Of a stretch of 31,056 nt of DNA, positions 2,022 to 7,453 are shown in pieces. A program made the position numbers and the translations under genes. Source of the stretch: Escherichia coli. GTDB taxonomy: Bacteria; Pseudomonadota; Gammaproteobacteria; Enterobacterales; Enterobacteriaceae. Where the stretch lies: assembly GCF_003334335.1 (NCBI RefSeq), contig NZ_QOWQ01000047.1; one strand, 5' to 3'. The notes under the pieces are model-generated. The model had not been told where the DNA came from. It saw only the letters and a list, made by a program, of their open reading frames with translations, and made no database searches. Within the stretch, counting starts at the first letter, position 1. Each line of letters begins with the position of its first letter.

Positions 2022-2690
2022 GATGAGAGATCTCCGTTGATTTGGATTGACTTCACATCATTAATCGCCGCGGTAAAACTTTACGGCATCCCACCAATGA
2101 GCAACGCCAATAGCTCCTGATTAAAACGGAATGAATCGTCCCGTAACGAAAAGATAATCCTGCACACGACAGCAAAACGTAAAACAACAGCATGAATGAG
2201 CTAAATGTCTAAAGAAAAACTGCCTTTTCACATTATTTTTCAGCGAGTAATCATACCAGCATCCCTAACATACGAAATCGCATCGTGATCGATCGCTGAT
2301 TCGCCGAACAACTGATCGAATACACCGGAATCTGCACTAACATCCTGATGGGTAACGGAAGACTAAAAAACCAGTGTTCTATTGATTGCACGGAATGCCT
2401 GTGCGCTGGCCTGACCAGTAAGCACAATTCTACGAGTAGTAAGATATCTACTCCAAAACCATGCGCAGTAGCCACCATATGTTGCCAGGGTGAAAAATAA
2501 GCTCAGAGCTATAGGGGAGTAATTCCCGTTAATGTCATCGCCGTACCTCAATCAGCTCACAAACTGGCTGAAACGTTAAGCTGAGGCCTTTATTCTTCAG
2601 ATGTATTTTCCGGTTTACCTGTAAATTATCTTCTGATATTTATCACATTAGTAATTGTGCTGATTATCTACATACTTCAAGGTCTGAAAT

Positions 2691-3221
2691 ATGAAGCTAA
2701 CAGAAGAAAGTCTGAATCTAGTCATTGACATCCTGAATGATTTGATCTGTGAAGGAAAAATGCTGAACGATGTGGAGCGCAGATCTCTGCTCAATGCAGT
2801 TATGGCAATTACAGCGGTAAAAGAACGTTCTGTCGTATCTGTATCATCCCGAAAAGAGCAAAGTAAGAAGGAGAAGAAGGAAAGAGAGATCGATCCTCGT
2901 TTCCCAAATGCTGGTGTGGCATGGAATGAGGCAGACGAGAGTTTATTGCGAGATGTTCTGGAGGATGTACCGGACGATGAAATTGGTAAACACCTTTTCT
3001 GGCTGGCAGAGAAACTAGGGCGAACCCCGTACAGTGTAGCCTGTAAAGTCAGACAAATTAAGAAATTACCTGCAGAATGGAAGGATCAATTTCGTAAAAT
3101 CTCTGACAGGATCCGTAGTTCTGGAATGTCAGTCAGTGAATATCTACAACGCCAGGGACTGTTAAGCCCAGAGTCAGGGGAAGAAAACAATCCTGTCAGT
3201 CATAACAACAATGTAGCTTAA
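2691..3221 (+). CDS. Hypothetical protein with a possible Myb/SANT-like helix-turn-helix segment
   Basis: A 176-aa ORF. Residues ~75-125 read AWNEADESLLRDVLEDVPDDEIGKHLFWLAEKLGRTPYSVACKVRQIKK. This follows the W-x2-E-[DE]-x2-L … W-x-[IL]A-x2-LGRT … spacing of Myb/SANT repeats. A Lys/Glu-rich linker (KEQSKKEKKERE) precedes it. Confidence 0.5.
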   Translation: MKLTEESLNLVIDILNDLICEGKMLNDVERRSLLNAVMAITAVKERSVVSVSSRKEQSKKEKKEREIDPRFPNAGVAWNEADESLLRDVLEDVPDDEIGKHLFWLAEKLGRTPYSVACKVRQIKKLPAEWKDQFRKISDRIRSSGMSVSEYLQRQGLLSPESGEENNPVSHNNNVA

Positions 3222-3234
3222 TCCTGAAGAAGAT

Positions 3235-3261
3235 GAACAGTTTATACTCTTTAAACTGTTC
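3235..3261 (+). terminator. Hairpin downstream of the 2691-3221 ORF: GAACAGTTTA, 7-nt loop, TAAACTGTTC
   Basis: Perfect 10-bp arms at 3235-3244 and 3252-3261, starting 14 nt after the stop codon. Only a weak T-run follows (CCTTAATTTTAG). Confidence 0.4.
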
Positions 3262-3748
3262 CCTTAATTTTAGAAAAACAGTTTGTGTAAGTGCATGCTC
3301 CAACATTCTGAAGGCGTTATTTCTTACAATACATCATAATCATTGGCAGATCCTCATCTGAATCAAAACACCACAACCAATCATCACACTTTTTCTGAAA
3401 AGAGCCTTATGATGAAGATAATCACCTTACGCTGAGAAAAAACACCAGGGCCAGTTAATCACCTTATCAATCTCGCCGTTACAAAATCATCCATAAGCCA
3501 TTTAACAGTGTTATCGCAAACTCACAGTAAATCGCATCAGGTTACCTCAATCGGATTTGAGTTAATTCACTGGGCTTTACGTAAAGATACTTTTCTCAAG
3601 CTAACGTCGAAACTCGAAATCTAAGGAAAGGTTAAACGTAACATCAGTAAAATCGAATAGCAGATTGATTGCTTAAACAGAAAGGTTTTACAGCAGCATT
3701 AAACTGATTTAGTTAACGTAAAGATTTACTAAACTGGATGTGTATAGC

Positions 3749-3880
3749 AATGCTTAACGAAAACACTTGTAGAAGTGTTTATGAAAATACGTGTATGTCT
3801 GGTAAAACACTTAGTAGAAAATACGTGTATAACACTTACTGAAATGCTTAGTAAAAATACTTAGTAAAATACGTGTATAT
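3749..3880. repeat. Iteron-like cluster of short direct and inverted repeats in an ORF-free AT-rich tract
   Basis: AAAATACGTGTAT occurs three times (3784-3796, 3818-3830, 3866-3878). The CTTAGTA core occurs three times (3810-3816, 3847-3853, 3860-3866), with degenerate copies (CTTAACG, CTTGTAG, CTTACTG) often 13 bp apart. A perfect palindrome AAACACTT-GTAG-AAGTGTTT sits at 3761-3780. Confidence 0.75.
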
Positions 3881-4384
3881 AGTATCATACCGACATTCTC
3901 AACATCTTCAGACTTCCATACATACTGGGTGTTAATTTTTCACTTTTACAGCCAGCATGGAGTTTTCTGTCCTAAAAACAGAGCAGATTTACTCTGGAGT
4001 TATTTTCCTGTTCACGTATTCAGTACAGCAGAAATCCCGTGATAACGAGACAGTAAACCATCGTAATCAGCGTCTGTAACTCCATCGCTTTACCCCAGAA
4101 AAGTTAAGCCATATAATGTGAGGGATATAAGTCGTCGTATCCGGTAAGTACAGATAACCACAACATAAGCTCATTCAGTAAATTTTATCTCTGAACAAAC
4201 GACTATGGCATGCTCATTTATACTATTCATAAGAAAGTGTGATTATCTGTAAGCATTAACCATCAAATCATATAACCATACTAAACTGGCGGATCATCAG
4301 CACCATTAGCAGGTAACTTATTGAAATTTTATTATGTGTTTTTTGTTGATAATTAATATGCAATATGAATTTGATATTTTAGAA

Positions 4385-5608
4385 TCATGAACACCATTTA
4401 AAATTACCATCATTAATATCATATAAAAATATATTTTTACTAAAACATGAATTGTATATATTTATTAGCTCAGGAAAATTATCAGGGTTCACCTTCAAAT
4501 TAACCTGAATGTTATGCTTAATTTCACCCAGTAGTTCTTCATGTGTGGATTTTATTATCCCATTATTATAATCGATAAATGCACACATGTTTTTTATGAA
4601 TTCAAAACCTTTTCCTGTATACAGTTTAATGAATGCCACCAGAGCAAACATTTCAAGATGTAGCCATAATGCTACGTTAGTTTTTTGCAAAGTATAAAAA
4701 ATTGAATTCGCCACTTTTTTACTTATTGCTCTTTTATACTGTGATCGAGCAAGATTCAGTAGCGGAAGCTCTCGTTCAATAAATGAATGTGAAAAGACTG
4801 GATAAATTGATGTCGGAAACCTTTCAGGCCTTATGATATTTTCTATTTCCACCATAAATCTATCCATAGAAAGAAAGTCACTTTCTTTTTTTATTCTGGT
4901 ATAGAGACCGCCTTTATTCCTTTCTGAGGTTTGTTTTCGTGCTATCCCCCCTAACAATTTCTCTAATTGTTTATTTATCTTCGTATAATTAAATACAACC
5001 ATTCTTCTTATCATCCTCGGAAGGATAATAATATCAGTGCTTGAATCACTTGAACGGCAATTATTATTTATCCATGCAACTTCAAGTTGCAGTATCGGAA
5101 CATTAACTTTTCTGGGGTGAATATCACTCTGATATCGTTTTTTGTATGCGTTTTCATTAAGATATTCTCTGCTGTAGAGAAACTTATAGCAATATAATCT
5201 GATAATATCTTTTATGTAAAATTTAAATAGTTCACCTGTAACAGATATATGTTTTCTGCTCAGTAACTCCTGTGTATTAAGCCATTCCCGTGACCGAAGC
5301 ACACCCTTGTGAAAACTTTTTCTTACTTGCTTTGAGGCACGGCATTGATGTAATATTTTTGCGTCCTCAATAATTCTCTTTCCCGTTTTATTTTTTGCAG
5401 CATCTCTTACTCCATAAAATATCTCCCGGTCCAGACTTTTGTCATATTTACTGATTATACGACAAATATTCCTGACCCGACGATTCTCTTTATTTCGCTT
5501 CCATAGCTTATAATGATCATCGCATAACCTTAAGGCATTTGCCTCATCAAATTCTGAAACAGGATTACTGCATTTTTTATTCCGACAAATACCTTTGTTT
5601 TTAGCCAT
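4385..5608 (-). CDS. Orphan hypothetical protein (407 aa) from a very AT-rich gene, with an N-terminal Cys/His cluster
   Basis: An uninterrupted 407-codon ORF with a purine-rich GGGAAGAAGAG stretch just upstream of the ATG. The N-terminus has C8-x4-C13 … C29-x2-H32. The rest is Lys/Ile/Asn/Phe-rich. I see no Walker A, DDE, RT or other motif I can recognise. Confidence 0.7.
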   Translation of the reverse strand: MAKNKGICRNKKCSNPVSEFDEANALRLCDDHYKLWKRNKENRRVRNICRIISKYDKSLDREIFYGVRDAAKNKTGKRIIEDAKILHQCRASKQVRKSFHKGVLRSREWLNTQELLSRKHISVTGELFKFYIKDIIRLYCYKFLYSREYLNENAYKKRYQSDIHPRKVNVPILQLEVAWINNNCRSSDSSTDIIILPRMIRRMVVFNYTKINKQLEKLLGGIARKQTSERNKGGLYTRIKKESDFLSMDRFMVEIENIIRPERFPTSIYPVFSHSFIERELPLLNLARSQYKRAISKKVANSIFYTLQKTNVALWLHLEMFALVAFIKLYTGKGFEFIKNMCAFIDYNNGIIKSTHEELLGEIKHNIQVNLKVNPDNFPELINIYNSCFSKNIFLYDINDGNFKWCS

Positions 5609-5708
5609 ACTCTTCTTCCCGTCAATGGAAAAATTTTCACACCCATATTACCTGAATGATAAACCGGATTAGTGTGATCCGGTTCAGTGAAATCAACAGG
5701 ATACCGGT

Positions 5709-7214
5709 ATGCCATTCAGCAATTCTTCCCTCTCCGCGCAAGTGAAATCATATCTGACGTTTCTTCCTGAAGAAATACGCCAGAAAATCCTTGAACATCT
5801 CCACGGTGTTATTCATTACGAGCCCGTGATTGGCATTATGGGTAAATCCGGCACCGGCAAGAGCAGCCTGTGTAATGCCATTTTTCAGTCCCGTATCTGC
5901 GCCACGCATCCCCTGAACGGCTGCACCCGCCAGGCTCATCGTCTTACCCTGCAGCTCGGTGAACGCAGAATGACGCTGGTCGATCTGCCCGGCATTGGTG
6001 AAACACCGCAGCATGATCAGGAATACCGAGCGCTTTATCGTCAGTTACTGCCGGAACTGGATCTGATTATCTGGATCCTGCGGAGTGATGAACGTGCGTA
6101 TGCTGCCGATATTGCCATGCATCAGTTTTTACTGAATGAGGGCGCAGATCCCTCGCGCTTTCTGTTTGTTCTCAGCCATGCCGATCGCATGTTTCCTGCT
6201 GAAGAATGGAATGCCACAGAAAAATGCCCGTCCCGTCACCAGGAACTCTCACTGGCGACAGTAACAGCCCGGGTGGCCACCCTGTTCCCTTCATCATTTC
6301 CGGTACTCCCCGTAGCCGCGCCTGCAGGCTGGAACCTTCCAGCGCTGGTGTCACTGATGATCCACGCGCTGCCACCACAGGCAACCAGCGCAGTTTATTC
6401 ACATATCCGGGGGGAAAACCACTCTGAACAGGCCCGGAAACACGCACAACTGACTTTTGGTGAAACCATCGGGAAAAGTTTTGACGACGCCGTTGCCCGT
6501 TTCAGTTTTCCGCCCTGGATGTTACAGCTTCTGCGCAAAACCCGGGACCGCATTATCCACCTGCTGTTCACTGTGGCATCCTTCTCCACCTCCGCCGGTA
6601 ACTGGGCTGTCAAAAACGGCTGGTGCCAGACCATGACGGAAGATGGTCAGGCGCTGGTAATGCTGAAAAATGGCACGATTGGTATTACCGGCCTGATGCA
6701 GGGATGCCCGAATGGCGTACAGACGCTCCTGGGCAGCCGTATCAGTATTAACGGTAACCTGATCCCCACATCACAAATGTGTAATCAGCAGACGGGATTC
6801 AGGGCTGTTGAGGTGGAAGTCGGACAGGCGCCGGAAATGGTCAAAAAAGCCGTTCACTCCATAGCAGAGCGTGATGTGTCCGTTTTACAGGCATTTGGTG
6901 TACGAATGGAATTCACCCGCGGTGATATGCTGAAGGTCTGTCCGAAATTTGTCACATCACTTGCCGGTTTTTCCCCGAAACAGACACCCGCCATTAATAA
7001 AGATTCCGTCCTGCAGGCTGCCCGGCAGGCATACGCCCGGGAATATGACGAGGAAACAACAGAAACCGCTGATTTTGGCTCTTACGAAGTAAAAGGCAAT
7101 AAGGTTGAGTTTGAAGTGTTCAATCCTGAAGACCGTGCGTACGACAAAGTGACCGTCACGGTTGGTGCTGACGGTAATGCCACCGGTGCCAGCGTTGAAT
7201 TTATCGGAAAATAG
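5709..7214 (+). CDS. YeeP/YkfA/YfjP-family GTPase (residues ~1-288) continuing in frame into a ~210-aa segment of unknown family
   Basis: It has a G1 P-loop GKSGTGKSS, a G3 DLPG and SHAD in place of the G4 motif. K-12 paralogues are recalled as about 287 aa, but here the frame stays open to 501 aa. An internal ATG at 6633 (M309) starts the extra segment. Confidence 0.8.
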
Positions 7215-7219
7215 CTGGT

Positions 7220-7453
7220 ATGTCGGACTGTCACCCTGTTTTATTGCCCGAAGGCCCTTTCTCACGCGAACAGGCGATGGCTGTCACAACAGCTTACCGC
7301 AATGTGCTTATTGAAGATGATCAGGGAACGCATTTCCGGCTGGTTATCCGCAATGCTGAAGGGCAGCTACGCTGGCGGTGCTGGAATTTTGAACCTGATG
7401 CCGGAAAACAGCTTAATGCGGGGCTCGCCAGTGAGGGAATTCTCAGGCAATAA
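7220..7453 (+). CDS. DUF905-family protein (YkfF-like)
   Basis: 77 aa. The run [55 protein letters not shown] closely parallels recalled YkfF. Confidence 0.8.

Follow-up and report, generated by a model that had tools for sequence, protein, structure and literature searches.

In an integrative island of Escherichia coli two convergent genes are separated by 1.16 kb of DNA which has no convincing open reading frame. What kind of DNA fills such a gap? It lies at positions 3222–4384 of the window, which is the whole stretch of 31,056 nt analysed here (contig NZ_QOWQ01000047.1), and it is bounded by the stops of a 176-aa ORF (2691–3221, +) and of a 407-aa ORF (4385–5608, −). The original prediction, made from the sequence alone, offered four options: a non-coding RNA locus, a degraded gene, a cis-acting site at a repeat array, and a spacer silenced by H-NS. 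In the literature on CP4-57, YfjJ, YagK, Gp2, oriT and hotspots we have found no published description of this region.

Open reading frames and composition of the gap

It had been claimed that the gap has no ORF of 60 aa or more, and this is borne out: the longest one on either strand has 42 aa (3233–3361). The 40-aa frame listed at 3957–4079 (+) is also present; its ATG is lost in one of the copies described below (L009) and it has no Pfam match. When the ORF-free stretches of the 31-kb window are ranked, the gap is the longest of all. Its six frames have 23–31 stops each, while the minimum averages 21.5 in shuffled sequences; the longest stop-free run has 69 codons, compared with a mean of 74.5 in the shuffles. 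Both stop density and open runs match the shuffles, so that only the intergenic length is unusual and the lack of ORFs is expected by chance. The claim of an unusually long ORF-free spacer is thus correct as regards length, but the emptiness is explained by base composition.

The description of the region as AT-rich DNA between convergent genes is also correct. The GC content of the gap is 0.33–0.36, as against 0.50–0.56 deeper in the island and about 51% in the host. Both neighbours are annotated: in RefSeq genomes which have the same DNA at 99.9% identity the two flanking ORFs are given as hypothetical proteins. Under the gap itself RefSeq has no CDS or other annotation in 60 genomes sampled across the whole range of similarity. 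A peculiarity of the + strand at 3201–3600 is that it is A-rich, with a strong C-over-G skew of −0.23.

The island and its genes

The window belongs to a CP4-type (P4-integrase-like) integrative island of E. coli. Sequences matching the gap are found in 2528 places in 1863 of the 5426 complete E. coli genomes, up to seven places in the same genome, and almost all of them are chromosomal. The YagK/YfjJ gene of the inovirus Gp2 type, to the left of the gap, has 2520 matching places in 1880 genomes: the two sequences co-occur nearly one to one. We have fetched 23 loci with copies of the island, from which 20 distinct copies were aligned (individual copies are designated by L and a number).

The gene order is the same in all 23 copies: the Gp2 gene (−) is followed by 1.4–2.4 kb with no CDS or a single small hypothetical one, then by a variable module and by a YfjP-type GTPase gene (+). 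Where the fetched stretch extends beyond the GTPase we find HTH/WYL, DUF905, DUF932, antirestriction, RadC and YeeU/CbtA genes; all rightward genes are on the + strand. AlpA and YfjI-family genes are present in relatives, the YfjI-type gene being located elsewhere, outside this window. The HUH fold of the Gp2 protein has been confirmed and the motifs of origin-binding nickases are present; its catalytic domain is about 90% identical among island copies, and no solved structure was found for it by sequence search.

The 407-aa protein has no match in Pfam, PADLOC or NCBIfam, but it is weakly homologous to a family of about 315 aa from other islands. The hypervariable slot which it occupies contains diverged alleles of a single uncharacterised module, with 20–76% amino acid identity, and none of the module proteins matched PADLOC or Pfam. 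Some variants of the module have an extra gene of about 265 aa on the side of the gap. The AT-richest DNA in this region is the 407-aa gene, not the gap.

Three modules in the gap

The alignment and the recurrent edges of BLAST blocks demonstrate that the gap is composite: it falls into three evolutionary modules, the breakpoints being near 3349 and 4010. Their coordinates are given in Table 1, together with those of the other features to be discussed.

Table 1. Features of the gap and its surroundings. Divergence is the mean pairwise value per site, calculated from 13–18 copies.
Feature	Position	Strand	Divergence	Description
YagK/YfjJ "inovirus Gp2" gene	1290–2021	−		Helicase-less HUH nuclease; constant left neighbour of the core
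Gp2, four-fold degenerate sites			0.084–0.12	Comparator
Gp2 upstream region			0.161	Comparator
Optional cassette tail	3222–3348			Cassette of about 1.1 kb (about 2200–3348) with the 176-aa ORF
Terminator-like hairpin, bidirectional	3235–3261			10-bp stem (GAACAGTTTA / TAAACTGTTC), 7-nt loop; just 3′ of the 176-aa ORF
Backbone non-coding core	3349–4010			In all copies, flanked by the Gp2/HUH gene and the variable module; orientation constant
Core segment	3349–3546		0.17	
Core segment	3547–3737		0.14	
Direct-repeat array, copy number variable	3738–3889	+		Units end in GTGTAT at 3740, 3791, 3825 and 3873
Repeat array segment	3738–3880		0.07–0.10	
8-bp inverted repeat	3761–3780			AAACACTT-GTAG-AAGTGTTT, inside the array
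−10-like hexamer TATAGT	3878–3902	+		In 20/20 copies (TATAAT in L010), then a conserved 13-mer, CCGACATTCTCAA
Core segment	3881–4010		0.20	
Weak terminator-like hairpin	3979–3996			Called on both strands by the terminator scan; 5–7 bp stem; right edge of the core
Variable non-coding flank	4011–4384			Common only to islands with the same 407-aa gene
407-aa protein gene	4385–5608	−		The window's allele of the hypervariable module, which the core and the YfjP-type GTPase gene enclose
Constrained 75-bp block upstream of the GTPase	5634–5708		0.036	Comparator
GTPase, four-fold degenerate sites			0.121	Comparator

The left module is the end of a gene cassette which is found in only four of the 20 distinct aligned copies (the window, L003, L094 and L096). 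In a MAFFT alignment of 12 gaps, 10 of the 11 other copies are gapped over 2222–3021, and homology starts again at about 3349; the left edge of the BLAST blocks is at query position 132, which corresponds to 3353 in the window. The hairpin at 3235–3261 is a perfect inverted repeat (I19), called by the terminator scan on both strands.

At the other end the limit is given by the hairpin at 3979–3996, whose stem is partly kept in the alignment with other copies; it is accompanied by an interrupted T-run which extends to 4006. Between islands with different modules homology stops just past this T-run, at about 4007–4023 (BLAST edges at query positions 786–802), and starts again 80 bp upstream of the GTPase start. 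The flank that follows, 4011–4384, exists as two allelic types with an identity of about 75%. In this flank lies a promoter-like site at 4089–4117 (+), which scores 10/12 and faces the 407-aa gene in antisense; three of the four alleles keep its −10. The terminator scan found four sites, as against 0.7 expected. Promoter-like sites are not commoner than in shuffled sequences (5 vs 6.1).

Distribution and divergence of the core

An nhmmer profile finds the core at full length in all 23 E. coli loci, with E values from 1e-156 to 1e-240. Outside E. coli only two E. coli-like contigs match the profile, and other genera have no match. The core is also absent from CP4-57 and CP4-6 of K-12 when searched with nhmmer, and it has no similarity to phage records. 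Only three plasmid records contain it, all of them fragments of the island. In two genomes there are insertions of the IS5 family, one which splits the core (WS0115A) and one in the gap (HNSQ2209); they lie inside the repeat array and are tolerated.

The position of the core is constant but its sequence is not. Divergence in its segments is 0.14–0.20, no window of 30 nt falls below 0.064, and the longest invariant run has 10 nt. These values indicate that the position is kept while the sequence drifts at about the neutral rate, as it is apparent from the comparators in Table 1; this benchmark of neutrality could be an underestimate, should gene conversion have made the flanking genes more uniform. 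In lineages which are 15–20% apart the core still has 657–798 bp, and outside the array indels are few. The deletion bias of bacteria should erode useless DNA, and the retention of core length therefore speaks for a degree of selection to keep the core. A lack of conservation had been named in the original prediction as one of the results that would refute it, and the outcome is divided: the sequence is conserved no better than synonymous sites, but the DNA itself is kept in essentially every copy.

The core is a recombination mosaic, without covariation with Gp2 alleles. Compared with E. coli 042 the window is 98–100% identical on both sides, but only 59–86% over 3547–4446. In distance matrices adjacent core segments correlate only at 0.1–0.56, and the correlation of the core with Gp2 segments is about zero.

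The repeat array

The array is the most distinctive part of the core. Each copy of the island has 4–6 co-oriented words, and a unit of about 22 nt, ACTTAGTARAAAATACGTGTAT, is present two or three times. In the window AAAATACGTGTAT has three exact occurrences, the spacing is irregular (19, 51, 34 and 48 bp) and a weak tandem period of 13 nt covers 3804–3869. The length of the array varies from 110 to 227 bp among the 20 copies: whole units have been gained or lost, and the indels are bounded by GTGTAT words. Most simply, the array is a slippage-prone tract of low complexity. None of its words is found elsewhere in the 31 kb window. The columns of the words are not preferentially conserved, with a pi of 0.092 as against 0.109 in the rest of the array (p=0.24).

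On the minus strand the words look like DnaA boxes (TTATACAC[A/G]). With up to one mismatch, the 20 homologous cores have 52 such sites, compared with 24 expected, and L007 and L097 have the perfect box TTATACACA. Over the entire window these words are not enriched (33 vs 31). When the array is folded as DNA, nothing in it is stable except the inverted repeat at 3761–3780; in six copies (L003, L004, L005, L007, L008 and L011) its hairpin is degraded, with no compensatory changes. The TATAGT hexamer, with which the array ends, lies in one of the least diverged patches (3874–3903, pi 0.082). It has no recognisable −35 and the promoter scan made no call there.

Two specific models for the array were compared with these data. 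Iteron-type origins have at least three direct repeats of 17–22 bp at regular spacing; selection on the repeats, or a match to the Rep protein, is not seen here, since the words are not preferentially conserved and Gp2 and array alleles are uncorrelated. A nick-site origin or oriT of the HUH enzyme would have a conserved nick site, usually in or near a maintained hairpin: the sole hairpin, 3761–3780, decays and there is no invariant run above 10 nt.

Alternative explanations

The options of a degraded gene and of a structured non-coding RNA fare poorly. That one or more genes once lay in the gap and decayed, in the distant past, until they became unrecognisable, we regard as very improbable indeed. 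The base skew at 3201–3600 (+) could be the fossil of an old coding strand, and the extra gene of about 265 aa found in other variants of the module lies on the side of the gap. However stop density is random in the six frames, the indels have no frame structure and small ORFs are not conserved: none is shared by more than 10 of the 20 copies. The comparison by six-frame tblastn with 78 loci which encode Gp2 homologs in other genera gave no relic, nor did the proteins of the variable module, including that of about 265 aa, and no intact version is annotated in any of the sampled genomes. One or more small or antisense RNAs encoded in the gap would be a less extreme proposal, and a quite unlikely one. 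A first candidate, about 115 nt long, would begin on the + strand near 3890, past TATAGT, and reach the hairpin and T-run at 3979–4006, with a conserved 5′ end, CCGACAUUCUCAA; a second one would be a transcript from the promoter-like site at 4089–4117, covering the 3′ end of the 407-aa gene in antisense. The conserved −10-like hexamer and the sequence just downstream of it agree with the former, as do the hairpins resembling terminators, on both strands, where the module begins, and a change of the G-to-U type in the alignment (L002, L007 and L010), which spares the stem on the + strand and breaks it on the − strand. The score of the second promoter-like site, 10/12, and the presence of its −10 in three of four alleles favour the latter, and a fold z-score of −3.1 at 3920–4039 (−) stands out from single-sequence values which are mostly above −2. 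Against these points, the body of the candidate RNA diverges by 0.16–0.26 per site, the two candidates have z-scores of only −1.3 and −0.9, promoter-like sites are no commoner than in the shuffles, and the proposed transcription unit has no −35 and a weak terminator (5-bp stem, interrupted T-run). Rfam has no match in the gap at E ≤ 1 or at the gathering score, and no match in the whole window at the latter; a permissive search gave one chance-level match, snoR32 (27.8 vs 45 bits, E 0.5), at 4641–4732, outside the gap. Consensus folds calculated with RNAalifold from 20 copies on both strands have near-zero energies, −1 to −4 kcal per 120 columns, with small hairpins only. The very large negative z-scores of RNAalifold were ignored because their shuffles had zero variance, which is an artefact.

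The remaining alternative, a cis-acting site at the repeat array, survives as a possible reading; evolutionary support for it is absent and we consider it doubtful. The core would be a cis-acting protein-binding region, either a putative origin for the adjacent HUH (Rep-like) Gp2 protein, composed of the array, the small inverted repeat and AT-rich DNA, or a TATAGT promoter which depends on an activator. As an origin it might be of the double-strand kind and maintain the excised island by rolling-circle replication, or it might be an oriT which makes the co-oriented genes (GTPase, DUF932, antirestriction, RadC and toxin-antitoxin) the first to enter the recipient. In a milder version the array would provide activator sites for the −35-less TATAGT promoter, reading towards the variable module. 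HUH Reps typically bind short tandem repeats beside a nick-site hairpin, and here we have 4–6 co-oriented repeats with an 8-bp hairpin, next to a gene whose product has the HUH fold and the motifs of origin-binding nickases. This linkage is maintained with the same order and orientation in 23 loci, and genome-wide in 2528 vs 2520 places. The excess of DnaA-box-like words (52 vs 24), with the perfect box in L007 and L097, TATAGT in 20/20 copies, the retention of core length and the + strand orientation of all rightward genes point in the same direction; furthermore, integrative and mobilizable elements (IMEs) with relaxases related to initiators of rolling-circle replication (RCR) have been documented in Firmicutes (PMC5704250). 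On the other hand, no block of the core is conserved beyond synonymous sites, although the catalytic domain of Gp2 is about 90% identical. The hairpin decays without compensation and no long ssDNA hairpin is present; the repeat words are conserved no better than the intervening spacers, their spacing is irregular (19, 51, 34 and 48 bp), and Gp2 alleles do not covary with array alleles. A cassette of 1.1 kb can even come between the Gp2 gene and the core. Distant homologs of Gp2 have long, AT-rich upstream regions, with no general enrichment in repeats (15% vs 11% in controls), and there is no similarity to plasmid or phage DNA, apart from the three island fragments in plasmid records.

The specific proposal that the helicase-less HUH protein nicks at an origin in the core, and replicates or mobilises the excised CP4-type island from there, appears unlikely. 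On that view a plasmid-like leading region would be formed by the GTPase, antirestriction, RadC and toxin-antitoxin genes, and one third of the E. coli genomes would have an unrecognised class of mobilizable island with a Rep-relaxase. The rapid turnover of the core would then correspond to an incompatibility-type diversification among co-resident islands.

A probable spacer in the island backbone

An AT-rich spacer is the reading that fits best, because the divergence is near-neutral. We give a probability of about one half to the conclusion that the gap is composite non-coding backbone spacer DNA of a CP4-type island, not a discrete genetic element. The 130 bp at the left would be the 3′ tail and terminator of the optional cassette with the 176-aa gene; the 660 bp in the middle would be a spacer, kept by every island copy between the HUH/Gp2 gene and the hypervariable module; the 370 bp at the right would be the 3′ flank of the 407-aa gene of the module. 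Homologous recombination between co-resident and incoming islands would shuffle this spacer, which probably acts through its composition and position rather than through its exact sequence. Judging from their sequence motifs, the two terminator-like hairpins may separate the convergent transcription units. The core could also be the left homology arm for the exchange of alleles of the hypervariable module, as breakpoints have been observed inside it. Of the option of an H-NS-silenced spacer, it is the spacer that survives; coating by H-NS would be expected, from general knowledge, for DNA with 33–36% GC in a host with 51% GC.

Some observations do not fit easily with a spacer: the TATAGT hexamer in 20/20 copies with its 13-mer, the roughly twofold excess of DnaA-box-like words, the constant Rep-like HUH neighbour and the scarcity of the H-NS motif.

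This unannotated block of 0.66 kb, which occurs about 2500 times among 5426 complete E. coli genomes, in about 1870 of them, appears as non-coding backbone DNA with no detectable sequence constraint. The consequence is modest: annotators and sRNA hunters can leave it aside. The core is also useful as a marker, since it indicates the left junction of a hypervariable gene module which is wholly uncharacterised. Furthermore it adjoins the HUH nuclease of very common islands; if the array were the target of this enzyme, the maintenance or transfer of CP4-type islands would be explained.

Comparison with known systems

In horizontally acquired islands there is AT-rich intergenic DNA which H-NS silences. 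The gap resembles such DNA in being non-coding, IS-tolerant, fast-evolving and located in an integrative island, with 33–36% GC in a host of about 51%. It differs in two respects: the AT-richest DNA is the 407-aa gene, and the 10-bp high-affinity motif is scarce. With up to two mismatches this motif (TCGATAAATT) has two matches in the gap, none of them in the core. K-12, from which the existing H-NS data come, does not have this DNA.

The core resembles two kinds of replication origins only superficially. Double-strand origins of HUH Reps include the bind and nic loci of RepB in pMV158, the iterons with a hairpin of geminiviruses and the Rep-binding repeats with a nick site of parvoviruses and AAV. 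They share with the core the presence of non-coding DNA beside a gene with the HUH nickase fold, short direct repeats that point the same way, and a small hairpin. In contrast, the core has no invariant nick-site motif, its hairpin is not maintained, its repeats are irregularly spaced, there is neither Rep-repeat covariation nor constraint above neutral, and it lies 1.3–1.8 kb from the start of the Gp2 gene, instead of being adjacent to it. The second kind is the ori and crr of the satellite phage P4, clusters of octamers which are bound by the alpha primase-helicase. Here the likeness is found in the P4-type backbone of the island (AlpA and YfjI-family genes in relatives) and in the 4–6 short words in AT-rich non-coding DNA. 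However the array word differs from the P4 octamer, phage records have no similarity and the YfjI-type gene lies outside the window. Among the defining features of the known systems, the region has only hairpins of the terminator type, a high AT content and its linkage to an HUH gene.

Two more comparisons concern the island as a whole. [quoted passage not shown] The documented cases belong to Firmicutes and to other Rep families. Variable cargo is also found in hotspots between conserved backbone flanks in P2/P4-like elements (bioRxiv 10.1101/2021.01.21.427644). The situation is similar in our island: between conserved flanks, the core on the left and the GTPase promoter on the right, lies a slot of differing content, with sharp junctions. 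The difference is that the slot of the island holds diverged alleles of one module and not unrelated systems.

Variable regions of the island

We will start with the slot between the core, which is the non-coding backbone part common to all aligned island copies, and the YfjP-type GTPase gene. To judge from the sequences it holds, this slot is a hypervariable module and not random cargo. Its genes in the different islands belong to a ~265-aa family on the plus strand and a ~315-aa family on the minus strand, the latter a weak relative of the 407-aa protein found in the window. Within both families the proteins are homologous between islands, at only 20–76% amino acid identity in the module genes compared, which include those of L006-L011 (E. 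coli island copies). The 407-aa protein and a 376-aa variant have a common C-terminus. The backbone genes which flank the module on both sides have a much lower divergence than the module proteins. Neither the two families nor the 407-aa protein have any match in Pfam or PADLOC; in NCBIfam the 407-aa protein, the sole module query, had no match.

Features of the window and of other island copies
Feature	Position	Strand	Remarks
Inovirus Gp2 protein gene	1290-2021	-
Optional insertion, ~1.1 kb	2200-3348
176-aa ORF in the insertion	2691-3221
Sigma-70-like site, TTTACC-17-TATAAT	4089-4117	+	10 of 12; promoter scan
407-aa protein gene (module)	4385-5608		compared with module genes of L006-L011
Near-invariant 75-bp block, directly upstream of GTPase start	5634-5708		compared in 15 island copies
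501-aa GTPase ORF	5709-7214
Second variable slot	L008-L010 (680-1577), L094 (1-370), L006/L100/L101 (left of Gp2 gene)		island copies

The block upstream of the GTPase start has a divergence of 0.036 among 15 island copies, compared with 0.14–0.20 for the AT-rich gap without ORFs. It includes an 8-bp inverted repeat, AACCGGAT-N7-ATCCGGTT, and could act as an operator or form a hairpin in the 5' leader. The GTPase ORF itself looks like a fusion in its sequence alignment. In E. coli 042 and PCN033, the counterpart of window positions 6560–7293 is shifted downstream by ~1 kb, and the HTH/WYL regulator gene of these two strains is missing from the window. On the other side of the module, the top-scoring sigma-70-like site of the gap faces the 407-aa gene from its 3' side, in antisense; the -10 element of this site is retained in three of the four alleles.

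The Gp2 gene and its surroundings

The Gp2 protein has the HUH Rep-nuclease fold, without a helicase domain. In the E. coli subfamily it includes a P/S-rich insert of ~45 aa, which is modelled with low confidence (residues 152–188). The allele of the window is rare: a match of at least 99% is found in one genome only, whereas the adjoining gap reaches at least 99% identity in 204 genomes. Gp2/YagK/YfjJ homologs in other Gammaproteobacteria and in Betaproteobacteria (78 loci, L016-L093) usually have 400–1000 bp of ORF-free DNA upstream, taken as the DNA upstream of position 5001. Its AT content exceeds that of the locus by 5–25 percentage points, and its sequence is not similar to that of the core in E. 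coli.

A second variable slot is found in other islands on the opposite side of the Gp2 gene, with TIR-domain, SLATT-domain and restriction-endonuclease genes. Such gene contents suggest that defence-type cargo is present on both flanks of the Gp2 gene. The optional insertion separates the core from the promoter region of Gp2 and is present in 4 of 20 distinct copies; its 176-aa ORF has no match in Pfam, NCBIfam or PADLOC. The non-coding region is also interrupted by IS5-family elements in two unrelated genomes, HNSQ2209 (H1) and L099 (4096–5076); in L099 the insertion divides the core within its array of direct repeats.
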